Below, one piece after another: positions 2,979 to 34,260 of a DNA stretch of 64,000 nt (within the stretch, counting starts at the first letter, position 1; the number at the start of each line of letters is the position of its first letter). The DNA comes from a virus (Duplodnaviria; Heunggongvirae; Uroviricota; Caudoviricetes). Below the pieces are notes generated by a model. It had not been told where the DNA came from, did no database searches, and saw only the letters and a program-made list of their open reading frames with translations. The stretch lies in the IMG/VR virus record IMGVR_UViG_2724679236_000008; one strand, given 5' to 3'. A program made the position numbers and the translations under genes.

Positions 2979-4540
2979 ATGAAAATGACAAGTATTCAAC
3001 AACGTGCAGAGCTTCATCGTCAAATCTGGCAAATTGCTAACGATGTCAGGGGTTCGGTCGATGGATGGGATTTTAAGCAATACGTTCTGGGCGCACTTTT
3101 CTACCGTTTTATCAGCGAAAATTTTTCCAGCTATATTGAAGCCGGTGATGACAGTATCTGTTATGCGAAACTGGATGACAGCGTAATTACTGATGACATT
3201 AAAGACGATGCCATCAAAACTAAAGGCTACTTCATCTACCCAAGTCAGCTTTTCTGCAACGTAGCTGCGAAAGCAAATACCAATGACAGACTGAATGCAG
3301 ATTTAAACAGTATCTTCGTTGCTATCGAAAGTTCTGCTTACGGTTACCCTTCAGAAGCTGACATCAAAGGTTTGTTTGCTGATTTCGATACCACCAGTAA
3401 CCGCCTGGGTAACACCGTTAAGGATAAAAATGCCCGCCTGGCTGCGGTTCTGAAAGGGGTTGAAGGGTTAAAACTTGGTGACTTCAACGAACATCAGATT
3501 GACCTGTTCGGCGATGCCTATGAGTTCCTGATTTCTAACTATGCGGCGAATGCTGGTAAGTCAGGCGGCGAGTTTTTTACACCGCAGCATGTCTCTAAGC
3601 TGATTGCACAACTGGCTATGCACGGGCAGACCCACGTTAACAAAATCTACGACCCAGCCGCAGGTTCCGGTTCGCTGTTGTTACAGGCGAAAAAGCAGTT
3701 TGATGACCATATCATCGAAGAAGGCTTTTTTGGTCAGGAGATCAACCATACGACCTATAACCTGGCGCGTATGAACATGTTTTTGCACAACATCAACTAC
3801 GACAAGTTTGATATCAAGCTGGGCAATACGCTGACTGAGCCGCACTTCAGAGATGAAAAACCGTTTGATGCCATCGTTTCTAACCCGCCATATTCGGTGA
3901 AATGGATTGGCAGTGATGACCCGACGCTGATTAACGATGAACGTTTTGCCCCTGCTGGCGTTCTGGCCCCAAATCAAAAGCTGACTTCGCCTTTGTACTA
4001 CATGCGCTGAACTATCTTTCTGCCAAAGGTCGTGCTGCGATTGTCTGCTTCCCGGGTATTTTTTACCGTGGCGGCGCAGAGCAGAAAATCCGTCAGTATC
4101 TGGTCGACAATAACTATGTCGAAACCGTGATTTCACTGGCACCGAATCTGTTCTTTGGCACCACTATTGCCGTAAACATTCTGGTGCTGTCTAAACATAA
4201 AACGGATACCAAAGTTCAGTTTATTGATGCCAGCGAGCTGTTTAAAAAAGAAACTAACAACAATACCCTGACCGATGCCCATATCGAACAGATTATGCAG
4301 GTATTTGCCAGCAAGGAAGATGTTGCTCATCTGGCGAAATCTGTTGCGTTTGAGACTGTTGTCGCGAATGACTATAACCTGTCGGTGAGCAGCTATGTGG
4401 AAGCGAAAGATACTCGCGAAATTATCGATATCGCTGAGTTGAATGCAGAGCTGAAAAGCACCGTCGGCAAAATCGACCAGTTGCGCAAAGATATTGATGC
4501 GATTGTGGCTGAAATTGAAGGCTGCGAGGTGCAGAAATGA
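2979..4540 (+). pseudogene. hsdM: type I R-M methyltransferase subunit HsdM, interrupted by a 1-nt frameshift at the CCCCAAA tract (3967-3973)
   Basis: Frame 1 (2979-4010) has N6-adenine MTase motifs including NPPYSVKW, then stops. Frame at -1 continues [63 protein letters not shown] to 4540. Combined length about 520 aa. Confidence 0.85.
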
Positions 4541-5730
4541 GCGAGATGAGTTATCTGGAAAAATTGCTGGATGGGGTTGAGGTTGAGTGGTTGCCATTGG
4601 GGGAAGTCTCAGCCTTAAGAAGAGGCAGAGTTATGTCAAAGGGATATTTAACTGAAAATTTTGGCCCATATCCTGTCTATAGCTCTCAAACTGCAAATAA
4701 TGGGAAAATAGGTTCTATCAATACCTTCGATTTTGATGGCGAATATATAAGCTGGACAACAGATGGCGCAAATGCAGGCACTGTGTTCTATCGAACAGGT
4801 AAATTTTCAATAACTAATGTTTGCGGCCTGATTACATTAAAAAGTAAATACCCATTAATCTACAAATTTCTGTTTTACTGGCTAACAATAGAAGCCAAAA
4901 AACATGTTTACTCAGGAATGGGAAACCCCAAGTTAATGAGTCATCAGGTTGAAAATATACCTGTACCAATCCCCTGCCCGGATAATCCGGAAAAATCCCT
5001 TGCCATCCAGTCTGAAATCGTCCGGATTCTGGATACATTTACTGCAATTACCGCTGAGCTTAACATGCGTAAAAAACAGTACAACTACTATCGCGACCGG
5101 TTATTTAGTTTTGGTGCCCACGATGTTAAACGTCTGAAATTAGGAGAGCTATGTGTAATTGGAGACGGTTTGCATGGTACTCCAGAATATGACGCCAACG
5201 GTGATTATTTCTTTATCAATGGAAACAATTTAGGCTATCAAAAAATATCATTTAACGATAACACAAAAAAGGTTAATGATTCTATGTTTAAAAAACACGG
5301 AATTCATTTTGACCCAATAAATACTGTTTTCCTGTCAATTAATGGCACAATTGGAAATGTTTCCTTTTACAATAATGAGAAGATCGTACTCGGTAAGTCT
5401 GTGGCCTATTTTAAAATTAAATCACCTGAACTCCACACTAGATATCTTTTCTATTTCCTGCAAACCAATTACGCAAAACAGTATTTTGAAAATCAAAAAA
5501 CAGGTTCAACTATTAAAAACTTAGGTTTAAAATCGTTGAGAGCATTTGAAATACCTATCCCATCATACGATGAACAACTTTATATCGTCGCCACGATGGA
5601 TAAATTTTACAACCTGACAAACTCCATCACCGAAGGCCTTCCGCGTGAAATCGAGTTGCGCCAGAAACAATACGAATACTACCGTGATTTACTTTTCAGT
5701 TTCCCGAAACCTGAAACTGTCAGTAATTAA
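4537..5730 (+). CDS. hsdS: type I R-M specificity subunit HsdS, 397 aa, type IC-like
   Basis: Two AT-rich variable target-recognition regions separated by conserved TAEL...[15 protein letters not shown] and C-terminal [26 protein letters not shown] overlap with hsdM end. Confidence 0.9.
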
Positions 5731-5851
5731 TTGACCATTGCTACCGATCGGGCCACCTTAACACCCGGTCAGTATATAGACTATTTTTTACGCGCCGGAA
5801 GTCACTCTTAACGCCCTTCCGGCTCTTGCCAGGCGGCACAAAGGATGCGCT

Positions 5852-8800
5852 ATGACTCATCAAACACACACCATTGCTGAATCCAATAACTTTATCGTCC
5901 TTGATAAGTACATCAAAGCTGAGCAAACAAGCGACAGCTACCAGAGCGAATCGGACCTGGAACGTGAACTGATTCAGGACCTGCGGAATCAGGGTTATGA
6001 ATTTATTTCCGTAAAATCACAGTCGGCAATGCTGTCCAATGTTCGGGAACAGCTTCAGAGCCTCAATGGTGTGATGTTTAATGACAGCGAGTGGCGGCGC
6101 TTCACGGAGCAGTATCTGGACAACCCCAGCGATGGTATTCTGGATAAAACCCGTAAAATCCATATCGACTATATCTGCGACTTTATTTTTGACGACGGGC
6201 GACTTGAGAACATCTATTTGATAGATAAAAAGAATCTCATGCGCAATAAGGTGCAGATTATCCAGCAGTTTGAACAGACGGGTTCTCATGCTAACCGTTA
6301 TGACGTCACGATCCTGGTTAATGGTTTACCGCTGGTGCAAATCGAACTAAAAAAACGCGGGGTGGCGATTCGTGAGGCTTTCAACCAGATACATCGTTAC
6401 AGTAAAGAGAGTTTTAACAGCGAAAATTCCCTGTTTAAGTATCTGCAGCTGTTCGTCATTTCCAACGGCACCGATACCCGTTATTTTGCCAACACGACAA
6501 AGCGCGATAAAAACAGTTTTGACTTCACCATGAACTGGGCGAAATCAGACAACACGCTGATTAAAGACCTCAAAGACTTTACCGCCACCTTTTTCCAGAA
6601 ACATACTCTGCTGAATGTTCTGGTGAACTACAGCGTGTTTGACAGTAGTCAGACACTACTGGTGATGCGACCGTACCAGATTGCTGCCACCGAGCGCATT
6701 CTGTGGAAAATTAAGAGTTCCTTTACAGCGAAGAACTGGTCAAAACCGGAAAGCGGTGGGTATATCTGGCACACTACCGGTTCTGGTAAAACCCTCACCA
6801 GCTTTAAAGCCGCGCGTCTGGCAACAGAGCTGGACTTTATTGATAAAGTCTTCTTTGTGGTCGACAGGAAAGACCTCGATTACCAGACCATGAAGGAATA
6901 TCAGCGTTTTTCGCCAGACAGCGTCAACGGCTCGGAAAATACCGCAGGCCTTAAACGAAATCTGGATAAGGACGATAACAAAATTATCGTCACTACTATT
7001 CAGAAACTCAATAACCTGATGAAAGCAGAAAGCGACCTGCCTGTATATAATCAGCAAGTGGTGTTTATATTTGATGAATGCCACCGCAGCCAGTTTGGAG
7101 AAGCGCAGAAAAACCTGAAGAAGAAATTCAAACGCTATTATCAGTTTGGTTTTACCGGCACCCCTATTTTCCCGGAAAACGCCTTAGGCTCAGAAACAAC
7201 CGCCAGCGTATTTGGTCGTGAATTGCATTCGTATGTAATTACCGATGCGATTCGTGACGAAAAAGTGCTCAAATTCAAGGTGGACTACAACGATGTGCGG
7301 CCACAGTTTAAGTCTTTAGAGACAGAAACTGACGAGAAAAAACTAAGTGCGGCTGAAAATCAGCAGGCGTTTCTTCATCCCATGCGTATTCAGGAAATCA
7401 CGCAATATATTCTGAATAATTTCCGCCAGAAAACCCACCGTACCTTCCCTGGCTCAAAAGGTTTTAATGCTATGTTGGCAGTAAGCAGCGTGGATGCTGC
7501 AAAAGCCTATTATGCGACGTTTAAACGGTTACAAGAGGAAGCAGCTAATAAATCGGCTACCTATAAACCGCTGCGTGTTGCGACAATCTTCTCCTTTGCC
7601 GCTAATGAAGAACAAAATGCCATTGGTGAAATTTCCGATGAAACTTTTGATACCAGCGCAATGGACAGCAGTGCTAAAGAGTTTCTGGACGCTGCAATTC
7701 GTGAATATAACAGCCATTTTAAAACTAACTTCAGCACCGACAGTAACGGTTTTCAGAACTACTATCGTGATTTAGCCCAGCGGGTTAAAAATCAGGATAT
7801 CGATCTGCTAATTGTCGTGGGGATGTTTTTAACCGGCTTCGATGCTCCAACATTGAACACGCTATTCGTCGATAAAAACTTGCGTTTTCACGGCCTGATG
7901 CAGGCATTTTCCCGCACCAACCGTATTTATGATGCAACTAAAACCTTCGGTAATATCGTCACTTTCCGGGATCTGGAACGCTCAACTATTGATGCCATAA
8001 CGCTGTTTGGTGACAAAAACACCAAAAATGTGGTGTTAGAAAAGAGTTATACAGAGTATATGGAAGGCTTTACTGATGCTGCTACTGGTGAAGCTAAACG
8101 CGGCTTCATGACAGTAGTTTCAGAACTGGAACAACGGTTCCCTGACCCTACCAGTATTGAAAGTGAAAAAGAGAAGAAAGACTTCGTTAAACTGTTTGGC
8201 GAATACCTGCGTGCCGAGAACATCCTGCAAAACTATGATGAATTTGCCACGCTAAAAGCCCTGCAACGAATCGATCTTAGCGATCCTGTTGCGGTAGAAA
8301 AATTCAAAGCAGAACATTATGTGGATGATGAAAAGTTCGCTGAATTGCAAACAATTCGTCTCCCTGCTGATCGCAAGATTCAGGATTATCGTTCTGCCTA
8401 TAACGATATTCGCGACTGGCAGCGCCGTGAGAAAGAAGCTGAGAAAAAAGAGAAATCAACCACTGACTGGGATGACGTAGTTTTTGAGGTCGATTTGCTG
8501 AAGTCTCAGGAAATAAACCTGGATTATATCCTTGGACTGATTTTCGAACACAACAGACAAAATAAAGGCAAGGGCGAAATGATCGAAGAGGTCAAACGCT
8601 TAATTCGTTCAAGCCTAGGGAACCGTGCTAAAGAGGGCCTGGTGGTCGATTTTATTCAGCAAACGAACCTGGATGATTTACCGGACAAAGCCAGCATCAT
8701 TGACGCATTCTTTACGTTTGCTCAACGCGAACAGCAACGTGAAGCAGAAGCATTGATAAAAGAAGAAAATCTCAATGAAGATGCAGCAAAACGCTATATT

Positions 8801-8968
8801 CGCACGTCTTTAAAACGCGAATATGCCACCGAAAATGGCACAGAATTAAACGAAACATTACCAAAACTTAGTCCGTTGAATCCGCAATATAAAACGAAAA
8901 AACAGGCAGTTTTCCAGAAAATCGTCTCGTTTATTGAGAAGTTTAAAGGCGTAGGCGGAAAAATATAG
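5852..8968 (+). CDS. hsdR: type I restriction endonuclease subunit HsdR, 1038 aa
   Basis: Superfamily-2 helicase motifs ([15 protein letters not shown]) with N-terminal nuclease region; length typical of type IC HsdR. Confidence 0.9.
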
Positions 8969-24570: not shown

Positions 24571-24598
24571 ATTACACTAATAAATTTATTAGAGCAAT
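24571..24598. promoter_or_regulatory. two overlapping C1-operator 17-mers in opposite orientation (15/17 and 17/17)
   Basis: attacactaataaattt (24571-24587) and aaatttattagagcaat (24582-24598), overlapping the methyltransferase stop codon; likely promoter for leftward tRNA-tci-ban transcription. Confidence 0.6.
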
Positions 24599-26853
24599 AC
24601 AGCTATAACGTCATGAGCAACACCACGAGTGTCCCCCTTACAAGACACAGAACGTCTGGCAAAAAGAGGTTCCACTCTGAAGCCACTGTCCTGATAAAGC
24701 TCTCTGATGTTTGGCGCGCCACTGTTAGTAATGAGAACCTTTGCACCTCGGCGATGGGCATCCGTCAACAGAGACACCAGGCGTTTTTGCTCTTCAAACT
24801 TAAAGTCATGACCGGAATAGTTCGTGAACCCCTCTGTATTGGGGAGCGGTTCATACGGCGGATCGCAAAAGATGACATCTCCTTCTCCGGCACCTTCAAT
24901 CACCGCTGCAAAATCACCGCATACAAACTCAGACCGCCCTTCCGCACCGATGAAGGCTTCCATCTCCTGTAATGGGAAATACGGAGTTTTATACTTCCCA
25001 TAACCAACATTAAACTCACCGGCCTGGTTGTAACGCGTCAATCCGTTAAAACAATGTCGGTTCAGGAACAAAAACGCTGCTGCACGATGTAAATCATCAT
25101 AGGCTTGTTTGTTAAACGCATTCCGTACTGCCAGGTATCCATCCTGTGTGTTGTAGTCCTGGAAAAACCGATGCGCCAGAGTGATAAGTGAATGTCCCTC
25201 ACGTTGCAGAGTCCTGTAAAAGTTAATCAGGTCGGCATTCACATCATTTAGCAGATTTTCTTGATATCCGGCATTTATGAAGACAGCTCCGCCACCAACG
25301 AAAGGTTCAATCAGGCGCTTTCCGTCAGGTAAATGCCTAAAGATTTGTTCCAGAACACCAAATTTTCCACCGACCCATTTAAATATGGGACGGTCAAATT
25401 CTGCCGTTAGCTTAACTTTCCGTTCTGTTGCTTCATGATTTTCTGCCTGCTGATATGCAGCCTTAATAATCCGCTCACCAATCCATCGCATTACTGGTAT
25501 CGCCATACTATTGCCGATCGCTTTGTAACGCGGTCCGTCAGCTGAAAGCATCGCGGCCTCTTCTTCGCTTAAATCTGGATAGTGATTGCGCAGATATGCC
25601 AGTTCATCTGAATTAACTTTTTTACGCTTTTCCGTAGGGATCAACGTATACCCATCAGGAAAACCTTGGAGTCTTTCGCATTCGACAGGGGTAAGGCGGC
25701 GGACAGCTACTTCTGCGTTTCTTACTTCATAGCAAACGGCTGTTGGATTTTGAGCCATTAGAGATGGTGAAGTATTCTTAGTTGCCGCATGTTGTGTACC
25801 ACTCATACGCTCAGGAAAAGCCAATGCAACAAGATGCTCATGGCTTTCTTGCTCACGCGCCCGCAATGTACCATGTCCTTCTGACCAAAAACCTGCTCCT
25901 GTGCTGCTAAAAACGGCAAGATCAGTAGCATCTTTAAAGTCTCTTGCCTTTACTGTCGATGCAGTTTCATCGTCAATATATTCCCCAAAAGCAGCCATCC
26001 TGAAAGCGTTTACGGCTTTCGTTGATTTCATTCTGGGGTTCCCATCAGCGTGTAGGCATGGATTTATATTTTCACCACTGATTGCAGCGCCATTTGCAAT
26101 AATGGCGGAAGCGATTTCCTTCTTTTTTCGGCTCGGCGCAATATTCCGGCGCACGCCTTCGAACTCAAAAAGTACCGTTGCGGGATCGAGGTCTGTTCGA
26201 GCACTTGCGACAACAAACACGCGTCGGCGTCGTTGTGCCACTCCGAAGTATTGGGCATCAAGGATTCTCCAGGCCACCTTTCGCTGCGGTCCATAAATAC
26301 AACCACACTGCGGCCACTTTGGAGCATGGCAACCGGTTTTGACATCCCACCGCCAGAACGCGTTACTTTTTCGTGATTCAGGTCGCTCACCTGGTTCGAA
26401 TGGCGCATCTTCTCCAGCCAATCCGGCAAGGAAACATCCGAAGGCGTTATCTGCCGATGACAAGACTCCTGGGACATTTTCCCAGACGATAACGGCTGGT
26501 TTGAGAAATGACTCAGCCCGTTTGTCGTCAATTGCATTTGCAAGCTCCACATACTTTAAAGTTAGCGCGCCACGCTCATCATCAAGCCCACCACGTAATC
26601 CCGCGATACTGAATGCCTGGCAAGGTGTTCCCCCGACGAGCACATCGGGGGATTCAATTTCCCCAGCCCGGACTTTTTTGGCAAGTTTTGTCATATCGCC
26701 AAGGTTGGCGACATGGGGCCAGCGGTGCGCAAGAACGGCAGATGGAAAAGGCTCGATTTCAGCAAACCAAGCCGGACGCATACCCAACGGCTCCCAAGCA
26801 ATGCTCGCGGCTTCAATTCCACTGCAAACAGATCCATAGCACAGCTCTTTCAC
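24589..26853 (-). CDS. dmt: fused DNA methyltransferase: N-terminal C5-cytosine MTase plus C-terminal Dam-like N6-adenine MTase, 754 aa
   Basis: C5 motifs [12 protein letters not shown] and ENVPGV in N-terminal half; Dam-family FVGGGAVF and DPPY in C-terminal half. Confidence 0.85.
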
Positions 26854-27755
26854 TGCTTAGCCTCTCCACCAAGGGCATTTACCAGAGCATCAACCAGGCT
26901 CGAAATTTCACTGGTCAACAGGAAGAAATCCGCGTCCAGGCGCTGCGCAACATCTTCACTATCAATATCAGAGTTCTGCTCAAGCAATTCATCCGCAAAT
27001 TTTACGCTGGTAAGGCTGAAGTTATGGTCCAGTGTAAATTTAATGCGGTTCTGCCAGTCGAGTGCCAACTTAGTGACGAGCTTGCCAGCTTCCAAGTGTG
27101 TGGAAATTTCATCGCTTCCCAAATCCTGCTTTTTCACTCGGGCAATACCGCCATCCTCAAGCACTGCCTTAAGTTCTGCCGCATCCCCCATTTGAAATCC
27201 CTGTGGAGCACTACCATCACGTACCCAGTCGGTCAGAGTTAATTCAATGGGATTTTCAACACTCAGGGGAACAACAGGAAGAGAACCCAGAGACTTACGC
27301 ATAAGCGCGAGCATATCCTCTGCCTGCCGCGCGCTGGCATTAATATAGATACGTTTAGTTGAACCGTCGTAGATCGCCTGGATAACAGAAAACTTTGAAA
27401 AAGCCCGTGGCAGAAGAGAATGCAGAACTTCGTCTTTCAGGGAGTCCTTCTCTGTTTTCTTCAGTTTACGCGCTTGTTCTTGCTCAAGTTTTTCAATTTT
27501 TTCTTGAATAGCTCGCTGGATAACCGGCGGGGGAAGAATTTTTGTTTCGCGCTTTGCTTCAACAAGGATAAAACCATTTCCATGCATAGCGATAACTTCG
27601 GAATTATCACCAAATGGCGATACAAAACCGAACTTGGCCATATCCTGACTACCGCATGGCGTGAAAAGGATCATTTTCTTTTTATCTTCTAAGTCGGTCA
27701 GATCCGCCTCACGAGAAAGTTTATAAATAGTAATGTTTTTCCAGTGCTTAAACAT
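26850..27755 (-). CDS. RdgC-like recombination-associated protein (P1 HrdC-like), about 301 aa
   Basis: From internal Met: [16 protein letters not shown]...[17 protein letters not shown]...[16 protein letters not shown] resembles E. coli RdgC; track ORF extends 38 codons upstream. Confidence 0.75.
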
Positions 27756-28104
27756 GTTGTAACCCTTGAATATCAACCACAGAAAGCTCGTCTTTGTAGA
27801 AAAAGGCCAGGTTGTGGCACCCCCTCGTTTGAGCGTATGAGCTGGGACCAATTTCGTTCTTCCAGACAAATGGCTTCAAATCCGTACGGCGAAGCATAAA
27901 AACGCGATTTGTTCCGCTCTGATTCCCAATGAGGCAAAAGCCTTCTTTCACCTTGATAGCCTGCAAGTTGTCGAGTTCACCGCTGGTTACACGGCTATCG
28001 AACTCCTTGCGGCTTATTAGCTCCATCTGCATCTGACGACTCCAAACAAATGCCCATTGAAGGGCGATGGCTGAATGGTACCGAAAACACTGCATAAAAA
28101 ACAA
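27748..28104 (-). CDS. hypothetical protein, up to 118 aa
   Basis: ORF immediately upstream of the RdgC-like gene; start uncertain. Confidence 0.4.
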
Positions 28105-28120
28105 TATTTATTAGAGCAAT
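28104..28120. promoter_or_regulatory. C1-operator-like 17-mer (16/17) in divergent intergenic region
   Basis: atatttattagagcaat; a weaker half-site at 28176-28190. Confidence 0.5.
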
Positions 28121-28201
28121 TTTGTAATAAGAAAACACCATTAAGACCACAAATAACATAAGGTAAAATAACGAAAATTAGAGCAAATAATTGGTGATGA
28201 C

Positions 28202-28486
28202 GTGGCAAGTATTGCAACAAAAGACAGCATTTGTTCGGGGCACGGAGGATTCCCATCCAGGCCTCCTGTAGAAAGTGAACCACTACTTAAAGTCAACGGA
28301 GTCGAAGTGTTAGTTGATGGTAAGCAATATGCACAGCATACCGATGGAAACAGTACGCACGGTGGGCAAGCTATATCAACCAGGGCATGGTTTACCGTCA
28401 ATGGTAAAGGGGTCGTATGCGTTGGTGACCCTGTTTCATGCGGCTCTACCGTAGCGTCAGGAGACGGCCTGGTTCAGGTAAGTTAG
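28202..28486 (+). CDS. PAAR-like spike-tip protein, 94 aa
   Basis: Repeated ...VNG(K)...GD...C...G...V pattern (LKVNGVEVLVDG, FTVNGKGVVCVGDPVSCGS) characteristic of PAAR-like domains. Confidence 0.5.
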   Translation: MASIATKDSICSGHGGFPSRPPVESEPLLKVNGVEVLVDGKQYAQHTDGNSTHGGQAISTRAWFTVNGKGVVCVGDPVSCGSTVASGDGLVQVS

Positions 28487-28494
28487 GAGATATC

Positions 28495-29283
28495 ATGCTG
28501 GAAAAAGACTACCAGTTATCCGCATATAAAAAATTGGCCGCAGCCGGTGGGATGAAAACACCTGGTGCCATAACATCGGCACGAAACAGTGCTAACACGG
28601 CAAAACAGCTTGCAGAAGAATTGATCGGATTAATTTTGGATACAATTGTCTATCCCGACACTATTACCAGCTATGTTTCAACGATCAGAACAACCACAAC
28701 CGGCTTAACGAACATTGGAGAACTGGCAACTAAGCACGCGGACCTGTTGGCTGGTTATGCAGATCTGTCAATGCTGCTTCAACTCGATATTGGTTGGGAT
28801 GTTTACTGCCGTGCTAATGAGCGAGAAGTATCAGAACTGCCGATCTCTATTGCCATTGGTGATGTGACTATTACTAAATCGCTTGAGGATGCTGTAAACG
28901 CGCTTAATACATCAAGTTTAGTCGCTGCTATGGGGGAGATTAACCAGACCCTTAACACTGGCTCAGGAAGCTCGTCAGGCTCTGGTTCAGGCGGCGGCAC
29001 TGCCACTCCCCCACCAGCACTAACAGAAGAGCAAATTGAATCTCTGAAAGTAGCAACTGAACAGTTTGGGGTTGTTTTCAACCAGACAACAGCGCCCACA
29101 ACTGCGTTACAACAGCAGTATGAACGAGCGAATGAAAGCGCCAACGTAGCCATAACTGCTTATAACCATGCTATCGGTACCGCGCTTGCGGAAGCATCAG
29201 CAAATAAGGCCAGCACAGCCAGCGCAGTCGCCGCTTTGGTTCCTGATTCTGTTCTTGATGAATTAAACAAAGCGGCACAGTAA
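28495..29283 (+). CDS. hypothetical protein with central Gly/Ser linker, 262 aa
   Basis: ATG at 28495 after AGGAGA; GSGSSSGSGSGGGTATPPPA linker between two helical regions. Confidence 0.55.
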   Translation: MLEKDYQLSAYKKLAAAGGMKTPGAITSARNSANTAKQLAEELIGLILDTIVYPDTITSYVSTIRTTTTGLTNIGELATKHADLLAGYADLSMLLQLDIGWDVYCRANEREVSELPISIAIGDVTITKSLEDAVNALNTSSLVAAMGEINQTLNTGSGSSSGSGSGGGTATPPPALTEEQIESLKVATEQFGVVFNQTTAPTTALQQQYERANESANVAITAYNHAIGTALAEASANKASTASAVAALVPDSVLDELNKAAQ

Positions 29284-29322: not shown

Positions 29323-29745
29323 ATGTCATTCTTTTCTACGTTAAAAACAGCTTTGTCTTTGAAGGAGAAACTTGCTGCTACTGGTGTTCTTGTTCTGATT
29401 TGCGCACTTGTTGGTGCTGGGTTTGCATGGGAACGTCATCAGCTAAAGCAAGCCTTAGAGAAAGTTAACCGCCTCGATCAGGCTGTTAAGGAACGTGATA
29501 AGTCAATCAGCGAGCTTAATCAGACCATTGAGACGATGAACAAAGCGGATCAACATTTTCACAGCCAGGAAGTGAAAAATGAATCAGAACAAGCCAAGTA
29601 TGCTGACAGGCAAATGGAGCGAAAAGCAGAAGTTCAGAAACAACTGGTTGCGGCGGGTAATGTTCGCCAGCGCATTCCTGCTGACACTCAGCGGTTGCTC
29701 CGGGAGTCGATCAGCGAATTTAACTCCGACGCCGACAAAGGTTAA
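29323..29745 (+). CDS. Rz-like i-spanin candidate (N-terminal TM helix plus coiled coil), 140 aa
   Basis: AGGAGG RBS; MSFFSTLKTALSLKEKLAATGVLVLICALVGAGFAW TM segment followed by coiled-coil; overlapped by a lipoprotein ORF in +1 frame. Confidence 0.5.
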   Translation: MSFFSTLKTALSLKEKLAATGVLVLICALVGAGFAWERHQLKQALEKVNRLDQAVKERDKSISELNQTIETMNKADQHFHSQEVKNESEQAKYADRQMERKAEVQKQLVAAGNVRQRIPADTQRLLRESISEFNSDADKG

Positions 29746-29911
29746 CCACCCTGCCCCCAAAAGTGCGTTTATGTGCAGGATGCCAGAGTTTAGCAGTGAA
29801 TATTTTGATGATCTGCCAGCGTATATCCTCGATACAGAAACGATGCTGATGGGGATTAACAGGAAGAATCGCAACGTCAATGATTACAACCGTGCTATCA
29901 GCGGTAACTAA
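29660..29911 (+). CDS. Rz1-like o-spanin candidate (lipoprotein, Pro-rich), 83 aa
   Basis: Lipobox LLTLSGC, then SGSRSANLTPTPTKVNHPAPKS; starts inside the 3' end of the Rz-like gene in another frame. Confidence 0.45.
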   Translation: MFASAFLLTLSGCSGSRSANLTPTPTKVNHPAPKSAFMCRMPEFSSEYFDDLPAYILDTETMLMGINRKNRNVNDYNRAISGN

Positions 29912-34094: not shown

Positions 34095-34260
34095 CTGCCT
34101 AAAATGTCCCGCATCAATTTCATGTATAACTATATGATATATATAGATATTCATGAAAAGTTTCAGACTGAAATTCCCACGGTTTCACGCCTGTTTTACT
34201 TGCCCCCTCCCCCGCACAAAAAATTTAAAAAATTACTTTTAGCGAGAAAGTCAACAAGTG
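34095..34260. other. candidate parS centromere region
   Basis: AT-rich stretch with repeated TTTCA(C/G/T)-type heptamers (atttcat, gtttcag, gaaattc, gtttcac) downstream of parB. Confidence 0.45.

Follow-up and report, generated by a model that had tools for sequence, protein, structure and literature searches.

The DNA analysed here, hereafter the window, is a stretch of 64,000 nucleotides from a virus of the Caudoviricetes (IMG/VR record IMGVR_UViG_2724679236_000008). Over the 2.7 kb around two adjacent rightward genes, upfC and upfB, it is 95-98% identical at the nucleotide level to Escherichia phage P1, P7, SJ46, and RCS47, and by its sequence the window is that of a P1-like phage-plasmid (Punavirus). 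The gene order is the same as in the P1 reference: dmt, hrdC, and uhr run leftward, the operator Odmt and the promoter Pdmt lie between, and upfC, upfB, ppfA/mlp, and upfA run rightward. The rightward block is followed, again as in the P1 reference, by oriR, repA, incA, parA, and parB; repA and oriR are about 1.3 kb from upfC/upfB. The features are collected in Table 1.

Table 1. Features of the upfC/upfB locus and of the spike genes in the window (positions are those of the window).
Feature	Position	Strand	Description
Gene 6 (hub)	18181-19197		Matches 9vzk chain Gp6, 4.2e-224
Gene 5 (trimeric spike capped by UpfC)	19190..19822	+	Matches 9vzk chain Gp5, 7.9e-135
C1 operator (Odmt, former Op68)	28104..28120	-	ATTGCTCTAATAAATAT, 16/17 to consensus
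Candidate sigma-70-like promoter	28141..28169	+	TTAAGA-17 nt-TAAAAT, 9/12; weak
upfC	28202..28486	+	GTG start, 94 aa; PAAR-repeat spike-tip protein, T4 gp5.4 orthologue
Coupling junction	28485..28497	+	upfC stop TAG (28484-28486) overlaps AGGAG; upfB ATG at 28495
upfB	28495..29283	+	262 aa, acidic, predicted all-helical; N-domain ~1-153, C-domain ~176-262
Linker core GSGSSSGSGSGGG	28960..28998	+	UpfB residues 156-168, between two predicted helical regions
ppfA	29323-29745	+	Rz/Rz1-type spanin pair with mlp; PHROG matches, P1 annotation
mlp	29579-29911	+	Embedded in ppfA; Rz/Rz1-type; next in the upfC/upfB operon

Since they match PHROG 281 and PHROG 1559, upfC and upfB are real genes and not chance open reading frames. 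The two frames, a 262-residue product, and a Gly/Ser linker had been described in the original prediction, and all are present as described, the length being 262 residues with ATG 28495 as the start codon. The longest upfB reading frame starts further upstream, at ATG 28438, and encodes 281 residues; this start is annotated in the RefSeq/GenBank entry of P1 (NC_005856), and the extra stretch (28438-28494) makes upfB overlap upfC by 49 nt. The N-termini of homologues, in 20/20 close and 38/38 divergent sequences, are equivalent to position 28495 (MLEKDYQL), with M1 invariant and L2 conserved in at least 90% of the 38 sequences, down to 18% identity. In addition, a Shine-Dalgarno sequence (AGGAG) lies at 28485-28489, 5 nt ahead of ATG 28495. 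Because of the homologue N-termini and this Shine-Dalgarno sequence, the 262-residue call is favoured, and RefSeq probably starts the gene 19 codons too early. The stop/start junction indicates that upfB is translationally coupled to upfC; in two relatives (L006 and L012), the stop codon of the PAAR gene and the start codon of the upfB homologue share 1 nt.

Two of the neighbouring leftward genes also differ in length between the mechanical reading frames and the P1 annotation. The hrdC frame (26850-27869, minus strand) encodes 339 residues from a TTG codon against 301 in the annotation, and the uhr frame (27748-28104, minus strand) encodes 118 residues, also from TTG, against 94. PHROG 2213 covers residues 25-118 only of the uhr frame, and the shorter annotated starts of both genes are probably right. 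Elsewhere, about 26% of positions 1-25000 of the window is absent from reference P1. A type I restriction-modification cassette at 2979-8968, between phd/doc and pmgS, comprises an hsdM-like gene (2979-4010), an hsdS-like gene (4537-5730), and an intact hsdR-like frame of 1038 residues (5852-8968). Phage vB_EcoM-673R5 has this cassette as well, with its hsdR annotated in pieces (HsdR2, HsdR1).

The upstream gene had been called PAAR-like, and UpfC is indeed a PAAR-type spike tip. Against the Pfam family PAAR_motif (PF05488), it scores 26.5 bits (E 7.4e-6), narrowly missing the gathering score of 27 bits, while the match with PHROG 281 ('PAAR motif') is at 2.2e-30. All of the eight UpfC-family members match PF05488 at E <= 0.01, the best at 2.8e-8. 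Among PDB sequences, UpfC is 98% identical to 9vyi_A, named 'UpfC' (2.5e-60), and the same single-sequence search also reaches T4 gp5.4 (4ku0 and 5iv5; 6.5e-8) and the PAAR protein 4jiv of a type VI secretion system (T6SS). A profile of eight divergent UpfC homologues matches T4 gp5.4 at 1.6e-11, 4jiv at 3.5e-9, and 4jiw at 5e-5. The failure to predict a PAAR fold had been named as the result that would count against the call; this point is settled by 9vyi, the experimental structure of a 98%-identical protein (PMC12810830). A single-sequence AF2 model of UpfC was too poor to use (pLDDT 39) and was discarded; with the solved structure it is not needed. Residues H14, H46, H53, and C80, together with C11, are invariant across the eight divergent homologues, and the first four align with His/Cys residues of gp5.4, so that the 3-His/1-Cys metal site of UpfC, as read from the alignment, is kept. 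At 94 residues, UpfC is not extended at either terminus by an effector domain. The trimeric beta-helical spike partner is encoded in the same genome by gene 5, about 8.4 kb from upfC and in another operon.

UpfB matches phrog_1559 at 9.5e-138 over residues 1-262 of a 263-position profile. Its composition is acidic (28 D+E versus 15 K+R) and rich in Ala and Thr; neither a transmembrane-grade segment (maximum KD19 1.23) nor a signal peptide or membrane anchor was found in the sequence. The AF2 model, based on a 20-sequence alignment, consists of helices only (mean pLDDT 83, pTM 0.76), and its sole internal disordered stretch, with pLDDT below 50, is at residues 159-169. A linker of 7-28 residues is present in 38/38 family members; it is low in complexity and rich in G/S/T/A/P, with no conserved sequence, which fits a role as a tether. 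The DNA that encodes the linker is not a tandem repeat. Conservation in UpfB is strongest at the N-terminus, in the C-terminal helices, and over residues 91-110, which read LLQLxIGWDVYCRAN among the close homologues.

In Foldseek searches of the PDB and BFVD, the UpfB model had no relative at E <= 0.001. At the head of the BFVD matches stand uncharacterised phage proteins about 240 residues long (TM 0.46-0.49, E ~0.02), some of which carry DUF7217, as in Serratia phage vB_SmaA_3M and Pectobacterium phage Wc4; these weak matches may be remote analogues of UpfB in unrelated phages, as far as the model can tell. At the sequence level, the sole PDB matches of UpfB were artificial Gly/Ser linkers, and the Pfam matches (ApoO, Serglycin, and DUF7432; E ~0.1) were set aside as noise. 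Overall, the model describes UpfB as a protein of two domains, helical throughout, for which no fold relative could be detected; this description is new here.

When 1.84 billion representatives were searched exhaustively with a profile, the UpfB family proved to consist of 88 clusters at 50% identity, of which the full-length ones are of about 250 residues and single-domain, and the rest are shorter fragments. Relatives are found in Cronobacter phage JK004 (58%) and E. coli phage D6 (27%), and the family extends to non-mobilizable plasmids of 80-140 kb in Vibrio and Photobacterium, which are probably phage-plasmids themselves. The loci of relatives were sampled in eight lineages, P1 included, from contigs encoding UpfB homologues and by tblastn. 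In all eight, a homologous 94-residue PAAR gene lies upstream of the UpfB homologue on the same strand, down to about 20% UpfB identity. The two genes are adjacent, often with a stop/start overlap, in five lineages (P1, L003, L005, L006, and L012), and are 2-6 genes apart, within ~3.5 kb, in the other three (L008, L009, and L010). In a Photobacterium plasmid (L009, CP100427), the order is a Phage_base_V spike gene, the PAAR gene, two genes, and the UpfB homologue. The conservation of this arrangement across lineages supports a partnership of UpfC and UpfB independently of any fit to density, although gene linkage is a sign of functional association and not of physical contact. The universal low-complexity linker, the small size of the family, and the PAAR linkage out to Vibrio and Photobacterium are new here.

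Downstream of upfB, the order PAAR-UpfB-spanin is conserved in part. A DUF2570 (Rz-like) gene follows the UpfB homologue in two distantly related phage-plasmid lineages, L006 (5771-6283) and L012 (5777-6319), while genes other than spanins follow it in L008, L009, and L010. Because the upfC operon of the window continues into the Rz/Rz1 spanin genes, it is one of virion and lysis functions and not of plasmid maintenance; the adjoining replicon is a matter of position only. A maintenance role for the pair was rejected on the same ground, and the two proteins have no similarity to partition or replication proteins.

The original prediction had placed the pair in the plasmid-maintenance region, under a divergent promoter containing a C1 operator. 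The operator and the nearness of the replicon stand, whereas the operator is annotated for leftward transcription and the operon is not a maintenance operon. Odmt overlaps the -35 element of the leftward promoter Pdmt (uhr-hrdC-dmt), according to the P1 annotation and the alignment to P1. Over the whole window, the 17-bp C1 consensus with up to three mismatches has ten matches, against 0.28 expected, at 928, 9217, 11309, 11358, 14982, 24571, 24582, 28104, 43260, and 44919. Two of these form an overlapping inverted pair (24571-24598) just past the 3' end of dmt (reading frame 24589-26853, minus strand). The weak sigma-70-like site of Table 1 is the only such candidate facing upfC; such sites are about as numerous in the region as chance would give, and the -35 element of the candidate is weaker in P1 (TACAGA). 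Between its candidate -10 and the upfC start codon, at 28177-28187 on the minus strand, lies a half-match to the C1-operator core, TTTGCTCTAAT. P1 carries TTTGCTCTGAT at the equivalent position, and the present isolate is nearer the operator core (11/17 consensus positions).

Late promoters were searched for as the -22 box AAGTGACTT, taken from the annotated promoter LP23, followed by 4 nt and TANNNT. The search recovers LP23 exactly, at 34256, and finds no such box upstream of upfC (28040-28200). The missing late-promoter box is not what would be expected ahead of virion genes, and it counts against placing the pair in the virion. From the arrangement of sites, it is plausible that upfC/upfB are under a C1-controlled divergent promoter.

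The UpfC tip was already known before this study. The 2004 annotation of P1 gave UpfC as 31% identical to T4 ORF 5.4, Gonzales et al. in 2022 aligned it with gp5.4 by HHpred (PMC9024508), and in a cryo-EM study of January 2026 UpfC was modelled at the atomic level as a monomer on the gp5 trimer (PMC12810830). The UpfB tripod comes from the same 2026 paper. It is shown hanging from the tip, as an AlphaFold3 trimer fitted into medium-resolution density and not built de novo, and a membrane-piercing role for it is termed speculative by its authors. This assignment agrees with the suggestion, made from the window's DNA, that the protein encoded downstream of the PAAR gene could be associated with the spike; the identity of the tripod as UpfB depends on the AlphaFold3 fit to medium-resolution density and is qualified to that extent. 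In a later paper (PMC13611949), the tripod is given as three UpfB copies with a distal loop, so that the two papers differ in stoichiometry (three trimers versus three copies).

With regard to function, upfC deletion leaves plaque formation normal, and an upfB deletion was also made (PMC9024508). A genome-wide CRISPRi screen scores upfA, upfB, upfC, ppfA, and mlp as non-essential (PMC10695390). LC-MS/MS of P1 virions missed UpfC, and likewise gp5, gp26, and PmgA, and the main text of that report has zero occurrences of UpfB (PMC9024508). Similarly, upfC and upfB are not mentioned in the main text of the P1vir RNA-seq paper, and no phenotype has been reported in the literature for either gene. 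In T4, gp5.4 can be dispensed with in assembly, whereas fitness and the injection of DNA into deep-rough LPS mutants require it (PMC12407873). The same paper reports a three-His/one-Cys metal site in gp5.4 and the loss of spike binding in the mutant H14A.

The explanation strongly favoured here is that the products of upfC and upfB make up the distal end of the cell-puncturing device in the tail of a P1-like myophage, a PAAR cap with a docked UpfB tripod, acting as a conditional entry or fitness factor. UpfC is a single-domain PAAR-repeat cone to which the 3-His/1-Cys metal site gives stability; one copy sits on the blunt end of the beta-helix of the gp5 trimer and sharpens it, as cryo-EM has established for P1. 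UpfB, presumably made in coupling with UpfC, would be a soluble, acidic protein of two helical domains joined by a flexible low-complexity tether. Following the published assignment, it would dock on the PAAR cone as a three-legged tripod and be the first part of the virion at the outer membrane. As in the case of T4 gp5.4, the pair is probably of conditional use for entry or fitness: standard K-12 lawns do not call for it, but on certain hosts it would aid penetration of the envelope or delivery of the DNA.

UpfB may also be regarded as cargo on the PAAR tip, released into the periplasm or cytoplasm of the host when the spike is translocated, and not as a mechanical part of the needle. It would then be a phage counterpart of the PAAR-bound effectors of T6SS, with a function such as channel formation, envelope remodelling, or counter-defence. 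As regards location, this proposal is compatible with the docked tripod: UpfB is placed at the most distal point of the spike in the published work, and P2-type spikes are translocated into the periplasm (PMC12407873). A flexible two-domain tether and dispensability in the laboratory would likewise suit an accessory factor that is delivered. However, UpfB has no toxin, enzyme, or membrane-insertion domain, as judged from Pfam matches above noise and from PDB and BFVD folds at E <= 0.001, and it has no hydrophobic stretch of transmembrane grade. Unlike in a T6SS module, neither UpfC nor the protein encoded after it carries a recognisable toxin, adaptor, or immunity domain. Delivery as cargo is rather unlikely.

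That UpfB is no virion protein at all, acting instead as a chaperone in the assembly of the PAAR tip or alongside the spanins in lysis while another protein accounts for the tripod density, would agree with its absence from the virion proteome (PMC9024508), with a tripod assigned solely by fitting a predicted model, and with the spanin-type gene directly after upfB in P1, L006, and L012, but it is highly improbable, given that the density accommodates the trimeric AF3 model of the published work, that the linkage is to PAAR and not to spanins (other genes follow in three lineages), that a periplasmic lysis partner would need a signal peptide or membrane anchor, neither of which was seen in UpfB, and that several baseplate proteins of proven presence and low copy number likewise escaped the mass spectrometry study. 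Both the cargo and the non-virion proposals are thus less supported than a tripod on the UpfC cone.

Starting from the tripod docked on UpfC, a bolder scheme can be put forward, to which a low probability is given. P1-type phage-plasmids of Enterobacteriaceae and Vibrionaceae would carry the UpfB tripod as a conserved accessory docked on PAAR and folded in a way peculiar to it; its release or translocation on puncture would decide whether DNA delivery succeeds on particular envelopes. The envelopes concerned could be, for example, those with truncated LPS, a capsule, or an envelope-level defence, and UpfB would be a phage analogue of PAAR-borne T6SS cargo instead of a passive part of the needle. 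What the UpfB tripod does is the remaining point of interest. On this point the analysis contributes the PAAR-UpfB linkage from P1 to Vibrio and Photobacterium, the family-wide design of two domains with a tether, and a predicted fold without a known relative. Since P1 is widely used for transduction and as a delivery chassis, a factor at the tip on which entry conditionally depends could be relevant to the engineering of host range.

The closest known system is P1 itself. The proteins of the window are orthologues of P1 UpfC and UpfB (P1_gp066 and P1_gp065; PDB codes: 9vyi and 9vzk; PMC12810830), with 98% identity to P1 isolates for UpfC and ~91-99% for UpfB, and the order uhr, Odmt, upfC-upfB-ppfA/mlp-upfA-oriR-repA is identical. 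The differences are allelic only: UpfC has two substitutions, and UpfB has a few, some of them in the linker. T4 gp5.4 (PDB codes: 4ku0 and 5iv5), at ~30% identity to UpfC, is likewise a PAAR cone of ~95 residues present as one copy on the gp5 beta-helix. It shares the 3-His/1-Cys site with UpfC and is also dispensable for plaques on standard hosts. However, the T4 tip gene is in the gene 5-6 region, whereas upfC stands apart from gene 5, and no tripod partner has been reported for T4 by cryo-EM, gp5.1 being proposed from an AF3 model only (PMC13611949). The PAAR proteins of T6SS, such as VCA0105 of V. cholerae (PDB code: 4jiv) and c1882 of E. coli (PDB code: 4jiw), belong to the same PAAR-repeat fold family as UpfC; they sharpen a trimeric spike of the VgrG or gp5 type and provide a docking site for other proteins. 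In contrast to them, UpfC is without an effector extension, UpfB is without a recognisable toxin or adaptor domain, and the pair belongs to a phage tail and not to a secretion system.
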